Shown one piece after another: positions 4,066-55,459 of a stretch of DNA of 64,000 nucleotides. The DNA comes from Escherichia virus KFS-EC. Below the pieces are notes generated by a model. The model made no database searches. It was given only the letters and a program-made list of their open reading frames with translations, and was not told where the DNA came from. A program made the position numbers and the translations under genes. The number at the start of each line of letters is the position of its first letter. Position 1 is the stretch's first letter. The stretch is taken from the sequence record MH560358. The stretch is one strand, 5' to 3'.

Positions 4066-5412
4066 TCAACCCTTCTTAAGTTCTTTAAGATCTTTCTTAT
4101 ATTCCTTCATTGCGGTCGTCTTTGTCCAATACTCATATTCACTATGATGTTTATCGGCATCTTTGACCAGTCGATCATACTCTTCTTGAGTAACGCTATA
4201 TAATGGCATAGAAACTAGCTTATCGGCGTATGGACGCAGTTTTTCATGTCCATTTATGGATTGCATTACCTCGGCCTTTTTCTTGCCCTGTAGCTCGATT
4301 TCGCCCTTAATTACGCGATCGATAAATTCGGCTTTAGCCATTGCATAATTGTATGCTTCCAGCGTTTCCGCTTGCATCAATTCAATGCGTTTATCGACAT
4401 ACCCTAATCGGATTTCGACGAATCGACGGATCAGATCGCTCGCTTTCTCGAATACTTCTACTAAACCACGTTCGTTAACTACTACGATATTCTGGGCTAC
4501 TAACTGCGTTAGTTTAAAATCCTTCATGATTTGCTCATGTCGAGCGGATTCATCTTCGCTTTTGAAATAATCGCGTTTCAGTGTTACTTCAAATCTGAAT
4601 CCGTCCTTAGAGCAACGGTCATTATACGATACAATCAGATCTTTTTCTTCCAGTGCATCCAGTACCGCTACATATTCTTCACGGTCGAACTTATAAGGAA
4701 CTTCTGATATTGTCAGTTTAGTCTTGCCGTTTAGTTCATATGTACCCTCAAGAATCACACCATCGCGATCATCTCGCGGGATAACTTTACCTGTGAATTT
4801 CGGGAATTGAACACTAGGTTCTTTATCCAGTTTTCCGGCAAGTGCTAGCTCTGTGCATTCAATAAGGCTTTCCAGTGAATGCGGTAAAATGTCAGTTTTA
4901 TACCCTGTAGCAATACCACTAATACCATTAGCCAATACCATTGGCACAACTGGCAAGTAGAAAGCTGGCGGGATGTGTTCCAGATCTTCGTGCTTAGGTG
5001 CGCAATTCATATCTTTATAGATTTTAAAGAAGTTTTCATGCACACGAGCAAAGATATAACGTGCCGCACCTGCTTTCTGGACTAAACGCGATCCGAAGTT
5101 ACCTTGACCGTCAAGCAGTGGAGTATTATTGCTCCATGTATTCGCCATGAGTGATCCGGCTTCTACGGCATTAGTTTCCCCGTGGTGATAACCCAACTCA
5201 GCAACACCAGATCCAATATCTGCCATCTTACGGAATTTCTTACGGTCGCCTTTACTCTTTTGCAAAGCACATTCCATAACAAAGCGTTGCACTGGTTTAA
5301 GTCCGTCTACCAATTGAGGAATCCCGCGTTCCTCGGCAGAATAGATCGCATATTCCTTAGCTTCATTATGTACAATGCTTTCAAGGCTGCGGTAAGTAAC
5401 TGATTTATTCAT
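4066..5412 (-). CDS. 52: DNA topoisomerase II medium subunit (GyrA-like), gp52
   Basis: strong similarity to T4 gp52 as recalled (PVQRFV, GYHHGE, LLDGQGNFGS motifs); start set at internal ATG, track start is GTG. Confidence 0.9.
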   Translation of the reverse strand: MNKSVTYRSLESIVHNEAKEYAIYSAEERGIPQLVDGLKPVQRFVMECALQKSKGDRKKFRKMADIGSGVAELGYHHGETNAVEAGSLMANTWSNNTPLLDGQGNFGSRLVQKAGAARYIFARVHENFFKIYKDMNCAPKHEDLEHIPPAFYLPVVPMVLANGISGIATGYKTDILPHSLESLIECTELALAGKLDKEPSVQFPKFTGKVIPRDDRDGVILEGTYELNGKTKLTISEVPYKFDREEYVAVLDALEEKDLIVSYNDRCSKDGFRFEVTLKRDYFKSEDESARHEQIMKDFKLTQLVAQNIVVVNERGLVEVFEKASDLIRRFVEIRLGYVDKRIELMQAETLEAYNYAMAKAEFIDRVIKGEIELQGKKKAEVMQSINGHEKLRPYADKLVSMPLYSVTQEEYDRLVKDADKHHSEYEYWTKTTAMKEYKKDLKELKKG

Positions 5413-5419
5413 CTTCACC

Positions 5420-5782
5420 TCATACACGCTTACAAATCACATTCTTTACTTTATCAGATTTATCAGCCCAATCCAATAGCCATTTTAACGGAAGGATTGA
5501 AACAATAAACGGGGCAGCAATCAAAGCAAACATGATACACCGGATAATCAGGAAAGCGCAAGTAACAAAGCTAGCGATACTGATCCCGACAAAACAAAAT
5601 ACCATAGAAAACAGAGTAATGATATAGAAAGGCCAGAATACCCACTCCCGCATCTTAACGCCTTTGTATTCTCTGAATTGCTTAAAATCTACAAACAACT
5701 CTCGGATAGACGCATACAGGACCGAAAAATCATCTTTCATTGCTCTGAATGAGCAATCTTCTATTTTAGAATGACCTAGCAT
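5420..5782 (-). CDS. membrane protein (120 aa)
   Basis: two to three hydrophobic helices in C-terminal half. Confidence 0.5.
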   Translation of the reverse strand: MLGHSKIEDCSFRAMKDDFSVLYASIRELFVDFKQFREYKGVKMREWVFWPFYIITLFSMVFCFVGISIASFVTCAFLIIRCIMFALIAAPFIVSILPLKWLLDWADKSDKVKNVICKRV

Positions 5783-5784
5783 TA

Positions 5785-6078
5785 TTAACCGCCTTTCATC
5801 ATTGATACTGGAATTGTTTTCTGATTTGTGTATAATTGGCCTACTTCAATTTTTTCTTGAATCACCACGACGTTACAATATCCACTGTCTTTAAGTTTTC
5901 TGATAATGACTCGCTTTTGTTCGTCGGTAATAGGATTGACTGTTCTCACCAATTCACCGCAAATAATAGCACCATCTTTACAATTACCAGTAACTTTCAT
6001 GCTACGACCGTGAACAACAACCACGTCACCGTAAATCACATTTTCGTCGTCGTATTTGGTAATAACCGTTACCGTCAT
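5785..6078 (-). CDS. hypothetical protein (97 aa)
   Basis: ATG with AGAGGGAA SD just after terminator. Confidence 0.5.
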   Translation of the reverse strand: MTVTVITKYDDENVIYGDVVVVHGRSMKVTGNCKDGAIICGELVRTVNPITDEQKRVIIRKLKDSGYCNVVVIQEKIEVGQLYTNQKTIPVSMMKGG

Positions 6079-19648: not shown

Positions 19649-19825
19649 CTAAGCACCGTCTTTCTCCTTTTTGCGTTTTTCTTTACCCGCTACACTAGGT
19701 CCACGATTGGTAATAGATCCGCTCGTTTCACCTGCTGCGATCTTCTCAGGATTGCCGCCAGCATCGCCAGTGGTCATATCTTCTTTGAGTTTATTTTCTT
19801 CAACAAACTGTTTAAATCCAATCAT
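19649..19825 (-). CDS. small hydrophilic protein (58 aa)
   Basis: hand-translated; ATGA overlap with stop of ORF 19822-20199. Confidence 0.3.
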   Translation of the reverse strand: MIGFKQFVEENKLKEDMTTGDAGGNPEKIAAGETSGSITNRGPSVAGKEKRKKEKDGA

Positions 19826-20199
19826 AGAATAATCTCTTTCAGTAAGTCAACAATCTGGTCTTTCGTCAGTTTATCCTGATTCTCTACAATCTTGATAACA
19901 CAAGCATTAACATCTTTTCGAGTCACGCGGGAGATCGTTTTAATACGATGAAACGGTTCGTAGAAATATACTGCTTCATTATAGAGCGCAGCAATTTTTC
20001 GACGCATTTGATCTTTATCTGACAAGAAAACAAGTGCTGTTTTATGACCTTCTACACCCGCCACGTTATATAGTTCAGCAACACCCCAGCGACCTTCCGG
20101 TTCAATCATTCCGGCGTGTTTACCGTCGATAAAAATAAGAATATCTCCGTTGAATGCGGTTTTGAATGCTACATCTTCCGGCGTAATCATATTTTTCAT
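19822..20199 (-). CDS. hypothetical protein (125 aa)
   Basis: ATG with AAGGAGA SD. Confidence 0.55.
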   Translation of the reverse strand: MKNMITPEDVAFKTAFNGDILIFIDGKHAGMIEPEGRWGVAELYNVAGVEGHKTALVFLSDKDQMRRKIAALYNEAVYFYEPFHRIKTISRVTRKDVNACVIKIVENQDKLTKDQIVDLLKEIIL

Positions 20200-50095: not shown

Positions 50096-50359
50096 TTATG
50101 ATTTTAGTGAATTAACCACTACATCAAAATGATGTACAGAGCACACCTTACGAAACACATATTCATCATGTTTCGGAATCGCCCCCAACCGCTTTATTTC
50201 GCTCGCCGACACGATAAACCGTTTATCAGGTGCATTTACCTTATATGCTTCAACAACGCACGGAAAACGCGTTTTAGAGAGTTCGGGATAGTTTTCTGAC
50301 TCCATCAGGACAATGAATACCCTATTACATTGATTGTAGAATCCGGTTTTTGATTTCAT
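50096..50359 (-). CDS. hypothetical protein (87 aa; start uncertain)
   Basis: shortest-overlap ATG chosen; alternative starts at 50401 or GTG 50425. Confidence 0.35.
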   Translation of the reverse strand: MKSKTGFYNQCNRVFIVLMESENYPELSKTRFPCVVEAYKVNAPDKRFIVSASEIKRLGAIPKHDEYVFRKVCSVHHFDVVVNSLKS

Positions 50360-50663
50360 CAAGTTTTCTTCTCTGTGAAATTCGTGCAATCTTCCTTTCA
50401 TGATTTCGTTGGTTCTCGTCTTCACAGTTTACCCACTCAACAAGGTCTTTACCTAACTCGAAAGCCCATTCTCGGTCCTGCTTTACGTTTTGTAGGTATG
50501 GACTTTCCGACACTCGACGAAGTGATCTTGTCGTAACAAGAATGATCCCAGGAATGTTCGGATGTTCCTTTCCATATACAATAGGACGCGAGTCACTATC
50601 AATACCCTGTAAGAAGGTGTATCCCGAATCACTTAGGATCATATACATTTTCATTTCATCCAT
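50325..50663 (-). CDS. hypothetical protein (112 aa)
   Basis: ATGA coupling with upstream paralog gene. Confidence 0.5.
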   Translation of the reverse strand: MDEMKMYMILSDSGYTFLQGIDSDSRPIVYGKEHPNIPGIILVTTRSLRRVSESPYLQNVKQDREWAFELGKDLVEWVNCEDENQRNHERKIARISQRRKLDEIKNRILQSM

Positions 50664-50923
50664 CACAGTTTCCTCAACCAGTTATTAAAGCGAGTAAACC
50701 ATGATGCTTTTCGTGCTTCTTCTTCGGCTTTGCACGCACGCAAACCACTGAAACACCATTCATAATCATCACTGAAACATGATTCAACAGGAACACCCGC
50801 ATTTCGTAGTTCTCTGGTCGTTATCATGAATCCTTGACATAATGGGCGACCTTCAACAATGATAGGAAGTTTAACTTTTTCCATGAAAGTATACCCAGCA
50901 CGGTCAATAATTTCAATCTTCAT
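50663..50923 (-). CDS. small paralogous early protein (86 aa)
   Basis: MKIEIID...KLPIIVEG; tandem paralog of 50942-51139. Confidence 0.55.
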   Translation of the reverse strand: MKIEIIDRAGYTFMEKVKLPIIVEGRPLCQGFMITTRELRNAGVPVESCFSDDYEWCFSGLRACKAEEEARKASWFTRFNNWLRKL

Positions 50924-50941
50924 AATATAATCCTCAATTAG

Positions 50942-51139
50942 TTATACCGCCCAGGCTTCATTTGCACGAAAACACCATTCATACTCAGGAAAATAACCTT
51001 TAATTGGTACGCCAGCTTTTTGTAGTTCCTGCGTTTCTACAAGATAATCAAGCCCATATCGACGACCTTCCACGATGATAGGAAGTTTAACGCCATTCAT
51101 GAAAGAAAATCCACCATCATCAATAATTTCAATTTTCAT
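50942..51139 (-). CDS. small paralogous early protein (65 aa)
   Basis: MKIEIIDDGGFSFMNGVKLPIIVEG...YEWCF; paralog of 50663-50923. Confidence 0.55.
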   Translation of the reverse strand: MKIEIIDDGGFSFMNGVKLPIIVEGRRYGLDYLVETQELQKAGVPIKGYFPEYEWCFRANEAWAV

Positions 51140-51384
51140 TTGACATTATCTCCATAGATCTTTCCATCAATATCAATTTCACCAGCGCGAACATCTAGGA
51201 TAAGATGTGGTAGGTGTATGCAGTTTTCCCACCCTACGCGCTTCATTTCTTCTACGGTAACGTAAGCCCATCCGTTCGCTGTAATAAAGTCTACTTCAAC
51301 CTTGAGAGGAAAGCAAGACTTTTCTATGTCTTCGAATCCGATAATGTGTTTTGTCGTTGAATATGGAATATATCCGGTGATCAT
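51136..51384 (-). CDS. hypothetical protein (82 aa)
   Basis: ATGA coupling; AAGGAGA SD. Confidence 0.5.
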   Translation of the reverse strand: MITGYIPYSTTKHIIGFEDIEKSCFPLKVEVDFITANGWAYVTVEEMKRVGWENCIHLPHLILDVRAGEIDIDGKIYGDNVK

Positions 51385-51815
51385 TTTGTGATCTCCTTAT
51401 ACTCAACACACCATAAGCGGGTAGCCCATGATAAACGCTCATAACGCTGGCAGAAATCGGACCATAGATATTGTGCACCGTTCGGCATAGTTGAAATATG
51501 CGTTTTCTCACCTACTTTCACGAAAGAAGTATTCGATTTTGTGATCTCGACCGGAGTATATCCGAAAGCTGGTTCCAAGTCAACATCTGAACTAAATGCT
51601 AATTTAACAGAATTTGTTTTTCTGACCGCTGTCCTGTTTCCTTCCGGGTATAACACAGCAGGTTTAGCGCCTAAGCGGATAAACTCAGTATTTTTAATGA
51701 ACAGAATATCATGATAACCGTCATATTCCGACACTTCCATAGTAACAGGAAAATCGATATGTGCTAAACCTGGTAGATCTCGCATATCATGAAATGTAGC
51801 CATAAGCTTTTTCAT
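51381..51815 (-). CDS. hypothetical protein (144 aa)
   Basis: internal ATG with GAGGAA SD. Confidence 0.5.
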   Translation of the reverse strand: MKKLMATFHDMRDLPGLAHIDFPVTMEVSEYDGYHDILFIKNTEFIRLGAKPAVLYPEGNRTAVRKTNSVKLAFSSDVDLEPAFGYTPVEITKSNTSFVKVGEKTHISTMPNGAQYLWSDFCQRYERLSWATRLWCVEYKEITK

Positions 51816-51825
51816 TCTATATTCC

Positions 51826-52023
51826 TCACTCTTCTGTTTCATTTCTTTTATATGGTACTATAACAGGATTAATACAGCAAGCACCAATTACGTTATGAGC
51901 ACCACAATTTAAACATTTATAGTCATGGAACTTATTAAGGAATCGACCAAACTCATAGCCGACTAACGCCGCATGTACTTGAGTCTCGATCTCATCCATA
52001 TCAGCCAATGTTTTAACCTTCAT
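51826..52023 (-). CDS. zinc-ribbon small protein (65 aa)
   Basis: CLNCG...CC motif; ATG with GAGGATTATATT RBS. Confidence 0.45.
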   Translation of the reverse strand: MKVKTLADMDEIETQVHAALVGYEFGRFLNKFHDYKCLNCGAHNVIGACCINPVIVPYKRNETEE

Positions 52024-52033
52024 AATATAATCC

Positions 52034-52324
52034 TCAAATTGTAGTTTTGCGAAGATGGTCATTACATGCTTTTAATGCATCGGTCGCGGTGTCATAGCGA
52101 GTATTATCATAGCACCAATAACCATCTGTCAACTGATAAATTAATCCATCCTTTTTAGCTTCGATGAAAGACAATTCTTTGAAAGTTTCTACTTTCTTTG
52201 CTGATACTCCACGGTCACGGCGCTTATAGAGTTTAGCCAAAATGCGTTCAGCTTGTTCCTCTTTATCACCAGACAGATCCCAGATGATGTTTCGGATATG
52301 CTTGATTAATTGTTCAGTGGTCAT
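52034..52324 (-). CDS. hypothetical protein (96 aa)
   Basis: ATG after AAGGAGAATCAAAG leader; promoter at 52351-52378. Confidence 0.5.
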   Translation of the reverse strand: MTTEQLIKHIRNIIWDLSGDKEEQAERILAKLYKRRDRGVSAKKVETFKELSFIEAKKDGLIYQLTDGYWCYDNTRYDTATDALKACNDHLRKTTI

Positions 52325-52350
52325 CTTTGATTCTCCTTAGTTGGTATGCG

Positions 52351-52378
52351 TGCATTATAGCATTGTGATTATCTTTGT
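52351..52378 (-). promoter_or_regulatory. early promoter (TTGACA-16-TATAAT)
   Basis: -35 at 52373-52378; immediately follows the terminator at 52396-52415. Confidence 0.55.
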
Positions 52379-52395
52379 CAACACCCAAAAACAAA

Positions 52396-52415
52396 AAAGG
52401 CTACCCCGAAGGATA
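52396..52415 (-). terminator. rho-independent terminator (UUCG tetraloop hairpin) after gp38-like gene
   Basis: GGCUAUCC-UUCG-GGGUAGCC followed by U-rich tract. Confidence 0.6.
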
Positions 52416-52425
52416 GCCCATAAAA

Positions 52426-53202
52426 TTACACGCGAGCACCGTAGATCGTGCCTACTTTATCCCAGCGTGGAGCATTACCAGTAACGGCTTTACCAGCAGC
52501 ACCACCGTTATATTCTGTACCGTTACCCTGAGTATTACATCTTCCTCCAGCAGCACCAACGTTACCGCCCGCACCGCCTGTATATGCACTAAGAGACCCC
52601 TTACCAACAGATCCTTTACCCGGAGCGGAAATGGAGCCAGCGGTTGCACCAGAACCCATATTAGAGGAAGACCCGGCAGCACCGAATGGGCAACCACCGC
52701 CGCCACCAAATACTAGTCGACCCCTGTTACCGCCGCCACCGCCGCCACCGCCGCCAGCGATAGCACCGTTATTTGTAATTCGTAGACGTGTACCGATAGC
52801 GTTATTGATTGCGTTTCCACCAGCAGCGCCAGCAGCGTTACTACCACCATTACCCCCACGTCCGTAGACAGTCACACCGGAGTTAATGATCAATGTTACA
52901 TATTCGTTTGTTAACGAGCTAGGGAAGTCAAGACAAGGAACGCCAGTAGATTGGGAAACAATATTACCTGTGATAGTAATTACTACCGGAGTAGATCCTT
53001 GTGCTTTCATCCAGTTAATAAGAGTGTCTTTATTGTAAGAGTTACTAGCACCAATGCTATAATGAATCTCTTTAGAGCGTCCGACCATTGCCGACATATA
53101 CGCCGGACGACCTAAGCGTACAGCTTGCATTGCGGCGCTCATCCACCGTTGACCAGTCTCGGACACAGCAGATGATCCTACCCATCCAGAAGATATTGCC
53201 AT
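52426..53202 (-). CDS. glycine-rich gp38-like tail-fibre adhesin homolog located in early region
   Basis: 258 aa; N-terminus MAISSGWVGSSAVSETGQRWMS...GRSKEIHYSIGA and motifs NEYVTLIINSGVTVYGRGGNGGSN, RLRITNNGAIAGGGGGGGGG resemble T2-type gp38 adhesins as recalled; GAGGAA SD; strongly GC-skewed Gly codons. Confidence 0.55.
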   Translation of the reverse strand: MAISSGWVGSSAVSETGQRWMSAAMQAVRLGRPAYMSAMVGRSKEIHYSIGASNSYNKDTLINWMKAQGSTPVVITITGNIVSQSTGVPCLDFPSSLTNEYVTLIINSGVTVYGRGGNGGSNAAGAAGGNAINNAIGTRLRITNNGAIAGGGGGGGGGNRGRLVFGGGGGCPFGAAGSSSNMGSGATAGSISAPGKGSVGKGSLSAYTGGAGGNVGAAGGRCNTQGNGTEYNGGAAGKAVTGNAPRWDKVGTIYGARV

Positions 53203-53222
53203 AAAATTTCCTCATAAGAAAA

Positions 53223-53239
53223 GCCCCAATTAAGGGGGC
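53223..53239 (-). terminator. terminator-like hairpin upstream of gp38-like gene
   Basis: GCCCC-loop-GGGGC followed by UUUUCUU on minus strand. Confidence 0.45.
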
Positions 53240-53257
53240 ATTGATTGATAATATTAC

Positions 53258-53479
53258 TTAGATGACCTCTGCTTCACCATCCAGGAAGAAAGACCATGTT
53301 TTGTTAGGATAGCGAAGCGCCCATGATTCAGCAGTTTTAACACCCGCTTCGAACAATTGACGGCTGGTTACTTTAGCCATACCATCTTCGATGGCAACGT
53401 TTTCAATAATCATCGGGTACTTAGCGCCACGCATGAAACCGAAACCAGCGGAAGATTTGATAATTTTAACAGTTGCCAT
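53258..53479 (-). CDS. small paralogous early protein (73 aa)
   Basis: resembles 50663-50923 family (GFGFMRGAKYPMIIEN...AGV). Confidence 0.5.
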   Translation of the reverse strand: MATVKIIKSSAGFGFMRGAKYPMIIENVAIEDGMAKVTSRQLFEAGVKTAESWALRYPNKTWSFFLDGEAEVI

Positions 53480-53566
53480 TTTTGATTCTCCTAGAAAGTG
53501 TATCTCGTTTCGATGGGTGTATTATGCAATAACACCGGATCGCTGTCAACACTTTCTAAGAAATTT

Positions 53567-53851
53567 TTAAACTAATCGAATATAGCCCAGAATTTCAGCA
53601 CTTTTAGCCAGATCTAAAACTTCCCATTCAAGGTCTCCATAGTCATAATTTGCAACCATCAACTGACCATTTTTCATGCAGCAATCATGAGAGAAAATTT
53701 GCCCCGCATAAACTACGATAGTGATAAACTTTCCTGATTCTGGCGGTGTGGAAGACAAAGCGACCATATGACCATTCAGCTTAGTCACCAGTGATGGAAC
53801 AATAAAATTCGGGCTTACCTTAATACCGTTAAATTCGTTTGTGTCTTTCAT
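53567..53851 (-). CDS. hypothetical protein (94 aa)
   Basis: ATGA coupling. Confidence 0.5.
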   Translation of the reverse strand: MKDTNEFNGIKVSPNFIVPSLVTKLNGHMVALSSTPPESGKFITIVVYAGQIFSHDCCMKNGQLMVANYDYGDLEWEVLDLAKSAEILGYIRLV

Positions 53852-54198
53852 GCCAGACCTCGCAAAATACTAATAGCATAATCATGCTGGTTATTCATAA
53901 TATCAATTGCATTGTGATAACGAGCTAAACCATCAAGGATAAATTCTTGTTTATCCTGTTTCAGTTTGGTATCACGCGCAGCCATAAGAGCATCAAGAAC
54001 AGGTCCAAAGTGATTATCTAATTCATCTTCGGTTGCAATGTTTCCTATTGCCTCGTCGATCCGTGATTCTAATGCTTGCTTTTCGTTGATCACTTGCTGG
54101 GTATATTCCAACACATCAAGAATATCGCGGGTAACGTCGCCATGATAAGGTATTCCCGCATGAAGATGATCAATTAGTCGTTGAATGTCAATGTTCAT
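53848..54198 (-). CDS. hypothetical protein (116 aa)
   Basis: ATG with GGAGGG SD. Confidence 0.5.
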   Translation of the reverse strand: MNIDIQRLIDHLHAGIPYHGDVTRDILDVLEYTQQVINEKQALESRIDEAIGNIATEDELDNHFGPVLDALMAARDTKLKQDKQEFILDGLARYHNAIDIMNNQHDYAISILRGLA

Positions 54199-54533
54199 TT
54201 GTAACCCTCCTCTGAAAGCACATCCCAGATCGTTGAGTCAAGGTGCATTAAATTCCACATAATAGAGTCATAACTACCGAAGCCAGAAGTAAAAATTACA
54301 TCACACTGGCGATATGTCTTATGAAAATCGGTGGCTGTCTCTGCATCAATAGGCATATCGTCACCTGAAAGCACCAGACATTTAAGAATCATAACTCTGT
54401 TAGCCGTTGGCGCTTGCTTAGTCTTTTCAGCATATTTTTCGATGATCCGTTTTGCCTTTTCTTCTTTGATACGTCCAGACCAAATCCGGTTTCTATATTG
54501 ATTCATAATAATTTCAATCACATCATTTTGCAT
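54195..54533 (-). CDS. hypothetical protein (112 aa)
   Basis: overlap-coupled. Confidence 0.45.
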   Translation of the reverse strand: MQNDVIEIIMNQYRNRIWSGRIKEEKAKRIIEKYAEKTKQAPTANRVMILKCLVLSGDDMPIDAETATDFHKTYRQCDVIFTSGFGSYDSIMWNLMHLDSTIWDVLSEEGYK

Positions 54534-54732
54534 TCTTCACGGTCTCCATAATTGTTTTGTAAGCCAGTTTAAGATGGTCACCGAAAAACTTTGCGGTGTT
54601 ACCCTTCGGATCGCGGAGCATGGTTTCTACGATCTCATCGGCAGTAACAATTTCTCCTTTCTTTGCTGCATGTTCTACCATATACTTCAAAGTTTCTTCG
54701 GAAGCAAGTGCTGCGGCTACTGGATTAATCAT
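54523..54732 (-). CDS. hypothetical protein (69 aa)
   Basis: ATG after AAGGAGAATCAAA leader. Confidence 0.5.
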   Translation of the reverse strand: MINPVAAALASEETLKYMVEHAAKKGEIVTADEIVETMLRDPKGNTAKFFGDHLKLAYKTIMETVKNAK

Positions 54733-54762
54733 TTTGATTCTCCTTTGTTGTCGATGTGTGCA

Positions 54763-54790
54763 TTATGCTATACCCTATTCCGGTTGTCAA
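54763..54790 (-). promoter_or_regulatory. early promoter (TTGACA-16-CATAAT)
   Basis: -35 at 54785-54790; follows terminator 54807-54826. Confidence 0.5.
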
Positions 54791-54806
54791 CACCTAAAAA
54801 CGAAAA

Positions 54807-54826
54807 AGCCACCCTTTCGGATGGCT
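54807..54826 (-). terminator. rho-independent terminator (GAAA tetraloop hairpin)
   Basis: GCCAUCC-GAAA-GGGUGGC then U5. Confidence 0.6.
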
Positions 54827-55060
54827 TTTTGATTATATTTTATTCACGTCCATTTGTATAGTAGTGTTTGAATCGACCTTTGCTAAACTAGTTAAACATA
54901 GTAACCAATTCACCATCCCTTTCCAATGATAACACTTCCTCGTCTTAGACGGGTCTTCTGATTCGGCAGTAATTGAACACGCGAAAGTATGAGGAAGCCA
55001 AATAGTTGTGTTGATGCTAGTATTCTTTTACTTCTGGTATGTATCCCAATGTGACTAACA

Positions 55061-55459
55061 TTAAGCCAATCGAGTGAGTTTATAAATTGTTTTAAAGCAT
55101 AGAGCTTTGATATCGTCTAAAACGCTCTGTAACGAGCTATCAACATCATTATAAATCTCACTAGCCATTTGCGTTAACTCTTGCAAATAGGCAATTTCGC
55201 TCATCTCCTTGCGGACGACCAACGTTGGCTGATAACGACCAGTGATCCCAATATTGGTTTCAGTGAAATCATCAACCAATTCTTGCATTTCAAGATAGAA
55301 CTCTTCTAGAGCCTTATGTTTTGCATAAGATCCAGGACCAGTTACTCCAAAATGCGCAGAATGCATATAAGTAACACTCATCAGACATTCACCGATAAAG
55401 CGGTCAACTTTATTAGCTTTCCCCTCTTCGGACGTCTTTAGAAAATCAATGAATTTCAT
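55061..55459 (-). CDS. hypothetical protein (132 aa)
   Basis: internal ATG; overlaps 3' end of the secreted-protein gene. Confidence 0.45.
   Translation of the reverse strand: MKFIDFLKTSEEGKANKVDRFIGECLMSVTYMHSAHFGVTGPGSYAKHKALEEFYLEMQELVDDFTETNIGITGRYQPTLVVRKEMSEIAYLQELTQMASEIYNDVDSSLQSVLDDIKALCFKTIYKLTRLA

Follow-up and report, generated by a model that had tools for sequence, protein, structure and literature searches.

Gene 38 in the early region of an RB49-like phage genome: most probably the functional long-tail-fibre adhesin at a displaced site

We analysed a 64,000-nucleotide stretch of DNA from Escherichia virus KFS-EC (sequence record MH560358), hereafter the window, and conclude that a 258-aa open reading frame on its minus strand is gene 38 (g38) of a Krischvirus, most probably encoding the single functional long-tail-fibre adhesin of the genome. 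We put the probability of this reading as a whole, including the history and the expression route that we propose for the gene, at about 0.88. The displacement of g38 from the fibre genes is real but became known with the RB49 genome, having been published for RB49 by Trojet 2011, citing Desplats 2002 (PMC3157838). Our additions are modest: the cassette that carries g38 is polymorphic (present or absent) among relatives, and the canonical layout has apparently been restored by a module from Tequatrovirus.

Identity of the gene product

The original prediction had taken this product for a T2/T6-type gp38 adhesin, quoting its N-terminus and glycine-rich motifs. Both read as quoted in the ORF, which has an ATG start, and profile searches bear the assignment out with matches far beyond chance. 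Pfam GP38 (PF05268) is matched over its whole length (profile 1-218 of 218) by residues 45-258 with E=5.1e-71, and Gp38_N (PF21721) aligns completely (1-40 of 40) with residues 1-40 at E=3.9e-18. A further match, at E=1.3e-97, is to PHROG 2056 ("tail fiber protein; host specificity"), and residues 1-256 of the product align with the structure of the Salmonella phage S16 gp38 (6F45_D, E=1.1e-48). Since the sequence matches both Pfam and a solved homologue, we regard the identity as settled: the predicted protein is a full-length gp38 adhesin of the T2/S16 type, and this identification is secure. Glycine accounts for 34% of residues 116-258, and among the g38 homologues compared (n=7) the glycine blocks are kept and the intervening loops are variable.

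A match to PHROG 1121, which we take to be the family of the T4-type gp38 chaperone, covers residues 1-89 only (E=1e-22). The T4-type assembly chaperone, a short protein (about 180 aa) with no adhesin domain, was rejected as an identity for the 258-aa product with its complete GP38 adhesin domain. The older annotation of RB49 and JSE, which was derived from T4 gp38 ("distal long tail fiber assembly catalyst"), is a mislabel, because the protein carries the full adhesin domain. A 78-aa proline-rich ORF opposite g38 (52631..52867) was likewise rejected as a gene, because it is the glycine codons read on the complementary strand.

The window gp38 is identical to RB49 gp38 at 253 of 258 residues, the substitutions (window residue first) being S4K, S5A, C171R, A176G and K201E. 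Codon 171 (52690-52692) encodes Cys within GGGGGCPFG, a position taken by Arg (GGGGGRPFG) in each of RB49, GEC-3S, PHB13, Brandy, kvi and Pu-Krd-SF3, and the window thus differs from RB49 within an otherwise conserved motif.

Position in the genome

The 4 kb around g38 share 99.2% DNA identity with phage ELT3 and 97.4% with RB49, and judged by this similarity the window is a segment of an RB49-like (Krischvirus) genome. The RB49 counterpart of the gene is RB49p079 (NP_891650; 45367-46143, minus strand), annotated "g38; similar to T2 and RB69 gp38 adhesin". Both genes occupy the same site among small hypothetical ORFs, with endoVII/nrdC/dam on one side and rI/tk on the other. The RB49 genes g34-g37 are found at 145039-154656 on the plus strand, followed by the small ORF Dc5 and the holin gene t; measured along the shorter arc of the circular map, some 55 kb separate g37 itself (151717-154656, plus) from g38. 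Collinearity between the window and RB49 extends from about 156.3 kb across the record end to about 57 kb in RB49. It places the start of the window about 1.7 kb past the end of g37, and the distance between g37 and the window g38 is therefore about 55 kb, with the two genes on opposite strands.

These data agree with the earlier description of a gene on the early strand, far from the tail-fibre cluster and with no late promoter of its own. The canonical layout, a late g37-g38 operon, is not found here: apart from the distance and the opposite orientation, no TAAATA occurs within 2.6 kb upstream of g38. A tblastn search of the window revealed no second gp38-like sequence. Had the genome or the window been rearranged, the separation could be an artefact and g37 could actually adjoin g38; the collinearity with RB49, and the same layout in about 42 records (from sampled BLAST tables that include RefSeq/GenBank duplicates), contradict this and make its probability negligible.

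Dc5 (PHROG 402), which is said to fill "the place of g38" in RB49, is also present downstream of g38 in phage kvi (positions within the compared segments: 19700-19939 in RB49, 5823-6062 in kvi). It is a gene in its own right, located between the fibre genes and the holin gene, and does not replace g38.

Anatomy of the locus

The features of the locus are collected in Table 1. On the minus strand their order is: the upstream PeSL (promoter-early stem-loop, a composite of a terminator hairpin and a sigma-70 promoter), four small ORFs, the 53549-53521 promoter, the 73-aa ORF, the GC hairpin, the Shine-Dalgarno (SD) sequence, g38 and the downstream PeSL. The two PeSLs bound a 2.4-kb block of five small ORFs and g38, in which g38 is the last gene; the block belongs to the nrdC-tk hyperplastic region. 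Directly upstream of g38 there is only the 53239-53223 hairpin, the nearest full upstream PeSL being that at 54830-54762. The hairpins flanking g38 (53239-53223 upstream, 52419-52398 downstream) were found where the original prediction had placed them, and its statement that the gene has an SD site and no promoter of its own holds as well, no promoter being detected between the 73-aa ORF and g38.

Table 1. Features of the g38 locus (positions in the window, or residues of the g38 product)
Feature	Position	Strand	Details
g38, long-tail-fibre tip adhesin	52426..53202	-	Pfam, PHROG and PDB matches
gp37-attachment domain of the g38 product	residues 1-40		Gp38_N match
Glycine-rich domain of the g38 product	from about residue 115		conserved glycine motifs alternating with variable loops
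Shine-Dalgarno sequence GAGGA	53209..53213	-	6 nt before the g38 ATG; without GGAG
GC hairpin GCCCC-N7-GGGGC, then UUUUCUU	53223..53239	-	5 GC pairs, -9.3 kcal/mol
PeSL directly 3' of g38	52354..52419	-	terminator hairpin and U-run, then sigma-70 promoter
g38 cassette (hairpin, SD, g38, terminator)	52382..53257	-	about 875 bp
73-aa early ORF (PHROG 7345)	53258..53479	-	first gene of the unit running into g38
Nearest upstream promoter, sigma-70-like	53521..53549	-	TTGACA-17-CATAAT, 11/12 matches
Upstream PeSL	54762..54830	-	12-bp terminator hairpin (-17.8 kcal/mol) and TTGACA-17-CATAAT
Late-promoter motif TATAAATA before rI	55789-55782	-	motif search
Late-promoter motif CATAAATA before rI	55808-55801	-	motif search

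The upstream hairpin may serve as a weak terminator/attenuator or as a 5' stabiliser of the mRNA; at canonical loci, hairpins occupy the equivalent position between g37 and g38. In the downstream PeSL, the hairpin has 9 pairs and a UUCG loop (-14.7 kcal/mol), and the promoter (52381-52354) is a perfect TTGACA-16-TATAAT predicted to drive the next early ORF. The 53549-53521 promoter is also annotated in GEC-3S. Consensus sigma-70 promoters (TTGACA-N16-18-NATAAT) number 15 in the window, all 15 on the minus strand, in the direction of g38, and none on the plus strand. Those at 54790, 52381 and 42447 share the terminator-plus-promoter junction ...GGCTTTTT(C/T)GTTTT.(A/G)GGTGTTGACA.

No structure for translational control was detected at g38: the predicted fold of the region from -88 to +43 is no better than that of shuffled sequences (z = 0.76) and leaves the SD free, which rules out a trap of the T4 e/soc type. 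An Rfam scan of 52200-55200 gave only sub-threshold chance matches. About 330 nt at 54733-55061, between rI.-1 and the upstream PeSL, contain no ORF and have no Rfam match above threshold; in kvi a gap of 327 nt separates the corresponding annotated ORFs, the comparison being one of lengths only. The small early ORFs at 50096-51842 and 53258-53479 (minus strand) include a group of putative weak paralogues of 73, 65, 86 and 82 aa, to which those of 113, 109 and 153 aa at 50096-51842 perhaps also belong. The 73-aa ORF is 25-32% identical to its three closest putative paralogues, and the shared pattern is G-F/Y-x-F-M...K-x-P-I-I-V-E-G...E-L-x-x-A-G-V...E-W (PHROG 7345 and others).

Mosaic structure of g38

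The five early-site copies compared (window, RB49, GEC-3S, PHB13 and Brandy) are 96-98% identical over their first 115 residues and 69-98% identical in the receptor-binding part, where the differences fall in the loops between conserved glycine blocks. A conserved N-terminal domain joined to a loop-variable C-terminal domain is the pattern that would be expected of an adhesin in use. Over nucleotides 440-690 the window g38 matches the late-site gene of kvi at 90-100% identity, against about 50% in the remainder of the two genes, and nucleotides 118-240 are 90-100% identical to the canonical g38 of Pu-Krd-SF3, a T-even phage with motA and asiA beside its fibre genes. These patches argue that the displaced g38 takes part in the same segment swapping as the canonical genes, and that it is, as far as can be read from the alignments, a member of one recombining gene pool across loci and genera. 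Swapping of loop segments with g38 genes at the canonical locus of other phages would still be going on. The gp38 of Pu-Krd-SF3 (4980-5765 of the compared segment) is itself chimeric: its first 40 residues or so are of the T-even type, and residues 45-100 or so are identical to the Krischvirus type, which points to cross-genus exchange in the N-terminal half as well.

Presence and absence of the cassette in Krischvirus

The early site is filled in about 42 Krischvirus records, which cover at least 80% of window positions 51800-53900, and empty in about 15, which cover only 57% of this region; both counts come from sampled BLAST tables that include RefSeq/GenBank duplicates. Nine empty phages were sampled: kvi, UPWr_E1, FL15, FL20, G2494, G5211, G37-3, MIZ4 and FL04. 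kvi and G2494 lack the segment of about 875 bp with the hairpin, g38 and the terminator; in both, a variant early promoter, TTGACA-CGGGGAGAAATCCCCG-TATAAT, comes immediately after the 73-aa ORF stop codon and differs in the spacer and in the sequence after the -10 element. The junctions of the cassette are accordingly at the 73-aa ORF stop codon and inside the promoter of the downstream PeSL. As a source of the deletion, the variant promoter was sought in the window with up to 3 mismatches allowed and was absent.

In seven of the nine empty phages g38 was seen directly at the canonical site; kvi, for instance, has the order g37, g38, Dc5, t. Its g37 shares only about 45% identity with that of RB49, and the segment comprising the 3' part of g37 and the 5' part of g38 shows 92-93% DNA identity to Tequatroviruses such as HP3, RB14, PST and M1. 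We read the g37-3'/g38 module of kvi as a recent cross-genus import from Tequatrovirus. Immediately past kvi g38, at the point from which the sequence is again homologous to RB49, about 12 nt (AAAAAGAATTAA) match the 3' end of the RB49-type g37.

The same early site with the same flanks is found in RB49, GEC-3S (a different species), PHB13 and Brandy, so the arrangement is old within the genus. From parsimony and the 12-nt relic we infer that the displaced g38 is ancestral within the genus and that the canonical layout of the kvi type is secondary. Most probably, the cassette would be lost when a lineage imports the Tequatrovirus module at the canonical site: the early-site g38 would then be mismatched, and recombination at the PeSL would delete it. 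A recent transposition carried by the flanking promoter/stem-loop cassettes had been proposed in the original prediction. Movement by way of such cassettes would fit the PeSL-bounded block and the precise absence of the g38 cassette in related phages, with junctions at the 73-aa ORF stop codon and the PeSL promoter; its recency is at odds with the shared site and flanks.

Function of the displaced gene

Spontaneous mutants of RB49 selected on the resistant strain F17 carry only the gp38 changes E230K or E230K plus Y231S, and RB49 gp38 is treated in that study as the long tail fibre's receptor-binding protein (Efimov 2022, PMC9569957). Both E230 and Y231 are present in the window gp38. As g37 lies outside the window, its product was examined in RB49, where a Peptidase_S74 domain was found at residues 871-930 (E=1.4e-11); since RB49 gp37 ends in an S74 chaperone, a separate adhesin is needed. 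ELT3, ECD7, PHB13 and kvi each have one place for g38 (tblastn), and an intact ORF with a good SD was found in 5/5 filled genomes compared (window, RB49, GEC-3S, PHB13 and Brandy).

By the established scheme, a gp38 monomer caps the tip of the gp37 trimer via its N-terminal domain once the C-terminal S74 chaperone domain of gp37 has self-cleaved, and the loops that vary within its glycine-rich C-terminal domain recognise the receptor, which for RB49 is OmpA together with certain O antigens.

The flanking hairpins and PeSL, the lack of a late promoter and the patches held in common with g38 genes of other phages might suggest instead a spare or silent cassette for host-range switching by recombination, the active adhesin then coming from another gene. 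Combined, the RB49 mutants, the S74-bearing gp37 that needs a separate adhesin and the single g38 per genome rule out a silent spare copy for practical purposes; the intact ORFs with good SDs and the disappearance of the cassette from genomes that acquired another g37-g38 pair also speak against it, and we consider such a reserve extremely improbable. The idea of recombinational switching keeps limited support from the shared segments; the notion of a reserve copy does not, g38 being active.

An early non-structural role, such as receptor masking, decoy or superinfection exclusion, instead of or besides that at the fibre tip, would fit the early strand, the sigma-70-type nearest promoter and the 2.6 kb without a late motif. 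The N-terminus, however, is the conserved gp37-attachment domain and shows by eye no obvious hydrophobic stretch resembling a signal peptide, and genetics ties g38 to the host range of the virion (PMC9569957). Moreover, same-species phages with g38 under the late control of g37 are viable, so that an early-only function is not required. Nothing else was found in favour of the decoy or receptor-masking protein suggested in the original prediction, and we regard such a role as very unlikely. Taken together, the data are best explained by an active adhesin that is the only one of its genome.

Expression of the displaced gene

Late promoters were searched for as TATAAATA with at most one mismatch, ATAAATA, CTAAATA and the TAAATA core. 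None was found closer to g38 than 55782, and no TAAATA core occurs on the minus strand between 55782 and the g38 ATG. TATAAATA itself occurs once in the window (5.8 expected by chance), with CATAAATA 19 nt upstream of it. This pair, 2.6 kb upstream of g38, is equivalent to Pl:48756 of RB49, the only late promoter predicted on the g38 strand in the region, with none nearer to g38 (Nolan 2006). The two motifs before rI look as if they formed a tandem late promoter that would serve the antiholin gene, in a block that is otherwise early.

Judged from motifs alone, transcription of g38 would most likely start at the sigma-70-type promoter at 53549-53521 and proceed across the 73-aa ORF and, by partial read-through, the weak hairpin. 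Transcripts reading through late from the rI promoter may add to this supply. Six copies of gp38 are needed per virion, so low or early synthesis could suffice. A shut-off of -35-dependent promoters of the AsiA type would confine expression from an early promoter to the first minutes of infection. The viable same-species phages that have g38 under g37 late control suggest that the timing of synthesis is not critical.

Alternatively, g38 might be expressed late as usual, from a degenerate nearby late promoter or by efficient read-through from the rI promoter, and its position would then have no regulatory consequence. The annotated experimental late promoter of RB49, that of g32, reads TCTAAATA, from which it follows that the RB49 late consensus is looser than TATAAATA; the first position of the motif is poorly conserved (PMC1524935), and TATAAATA (55789) and CATAAATA (55808) do stand upstream on the same strand. 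This is opposed by the missing TAAATA core, by the lack of a predicted promoter nearer than Pl:48756 (Nolan 2006), and by the strong PeSL terminator (-17.8 kcal/mol) and the second hairpin in between, PeSL stem-loops being reported as effective terminators (Arbiol 2010, PMC2839356). We consider ordinary late expression plausible, though short of probable.

A bolder version of early expression is that the adhesin is made early by the host sigma-70 RNA polymerase and stockpiled, its message perhaps being unusually stable and its pool perhaps active within the cell. Stability might come from the hairpin at each end of the message and from an SD without GGAG, and the early pool might act, for example, on newly made receptor in the infected cell before capping the fibres. 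A structural protein of the virion would then be controlled as an early one and might have a second role, but we think this unlikely. A RegB-sparing effect was dropped as not discriminating, because 6/15 neighbouring genes checked also lack GGAG in their SD. In the literature on RB49-like phages we found no usable transcriptome, proteome, protein-timing or virion mass spectrometry data for g38, and the gene is not discussed by Arbiol 2010 or Petrov 2010. We retain the sigma-70-type promoter with read-through as the most likely route.

Discussion

The main point, that RB49-type phages keep a functional host-range gene apart from the fibre operon, is already in the literature, and the filled/empty polymorphism together with the restored layout will perhaps be useful to specialists. 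There are practical consequences nevertheless. Automated annotation mislabels g38, and "assembly catalyst", "tail assembly protein" and "hypothetical protein" are among the labels in the records seen. Pipelines for host-range prediction or engineering that check only beside g37 will miss g38 in most Krischvirus therapy candidates. The natural filled and empty genotypes provide a ready pair for asking if it matters when the adhesin is synthesised and if an essential gene can be moved by PeSL recombination.

Among known systems, the closest is g38 of RB49 itself (also of Phi1, JSE, GEC-3S, Cognac49, Whisky49 and Brandy49), which is the same gene at the same site with the same flanking hairpins and PeSL. 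The PeSLs of RB49 and phi1 have been described as recombination hot spots that shuffle cassettes (Arbiol 2010, PMC2839356). In the window a complete PeSL lies directly downstream of g38 and another 1.6 kb upstream, and among relatives the cassette shows the presence/absence polymorphism, with junctions in or beside a PeSL, that would be expected of such cassettes. It departs from them in two respects: a typical cassette carries a small ORFan together with an early promoter for it, whereas the present one carries an essential virion gene, and the element immediately upstream of g38 is a hairpin without a promoter.

With gp38 of S16 (6F45 chain D), T2, T6 and Ox2 the window protein has the two-domain architecture in common, and in those systems the partner gp37 has an S74 chaperone domain, as does RB49 gp37. 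There, however, g38 stands directly behind g37 and is co-transcribed with it late, whereas the window g38 is 55 kb off, on the opposite strand and without a late promoter. T4 gp38, a tail-fibre assembly chaperone, is absent from the virion, the T4 adhesin being the gp37 tip (PMC3157838); the window protein resembles it only in the N-terminal 90 residues or so and, unlike it, has a full adhesin domain.
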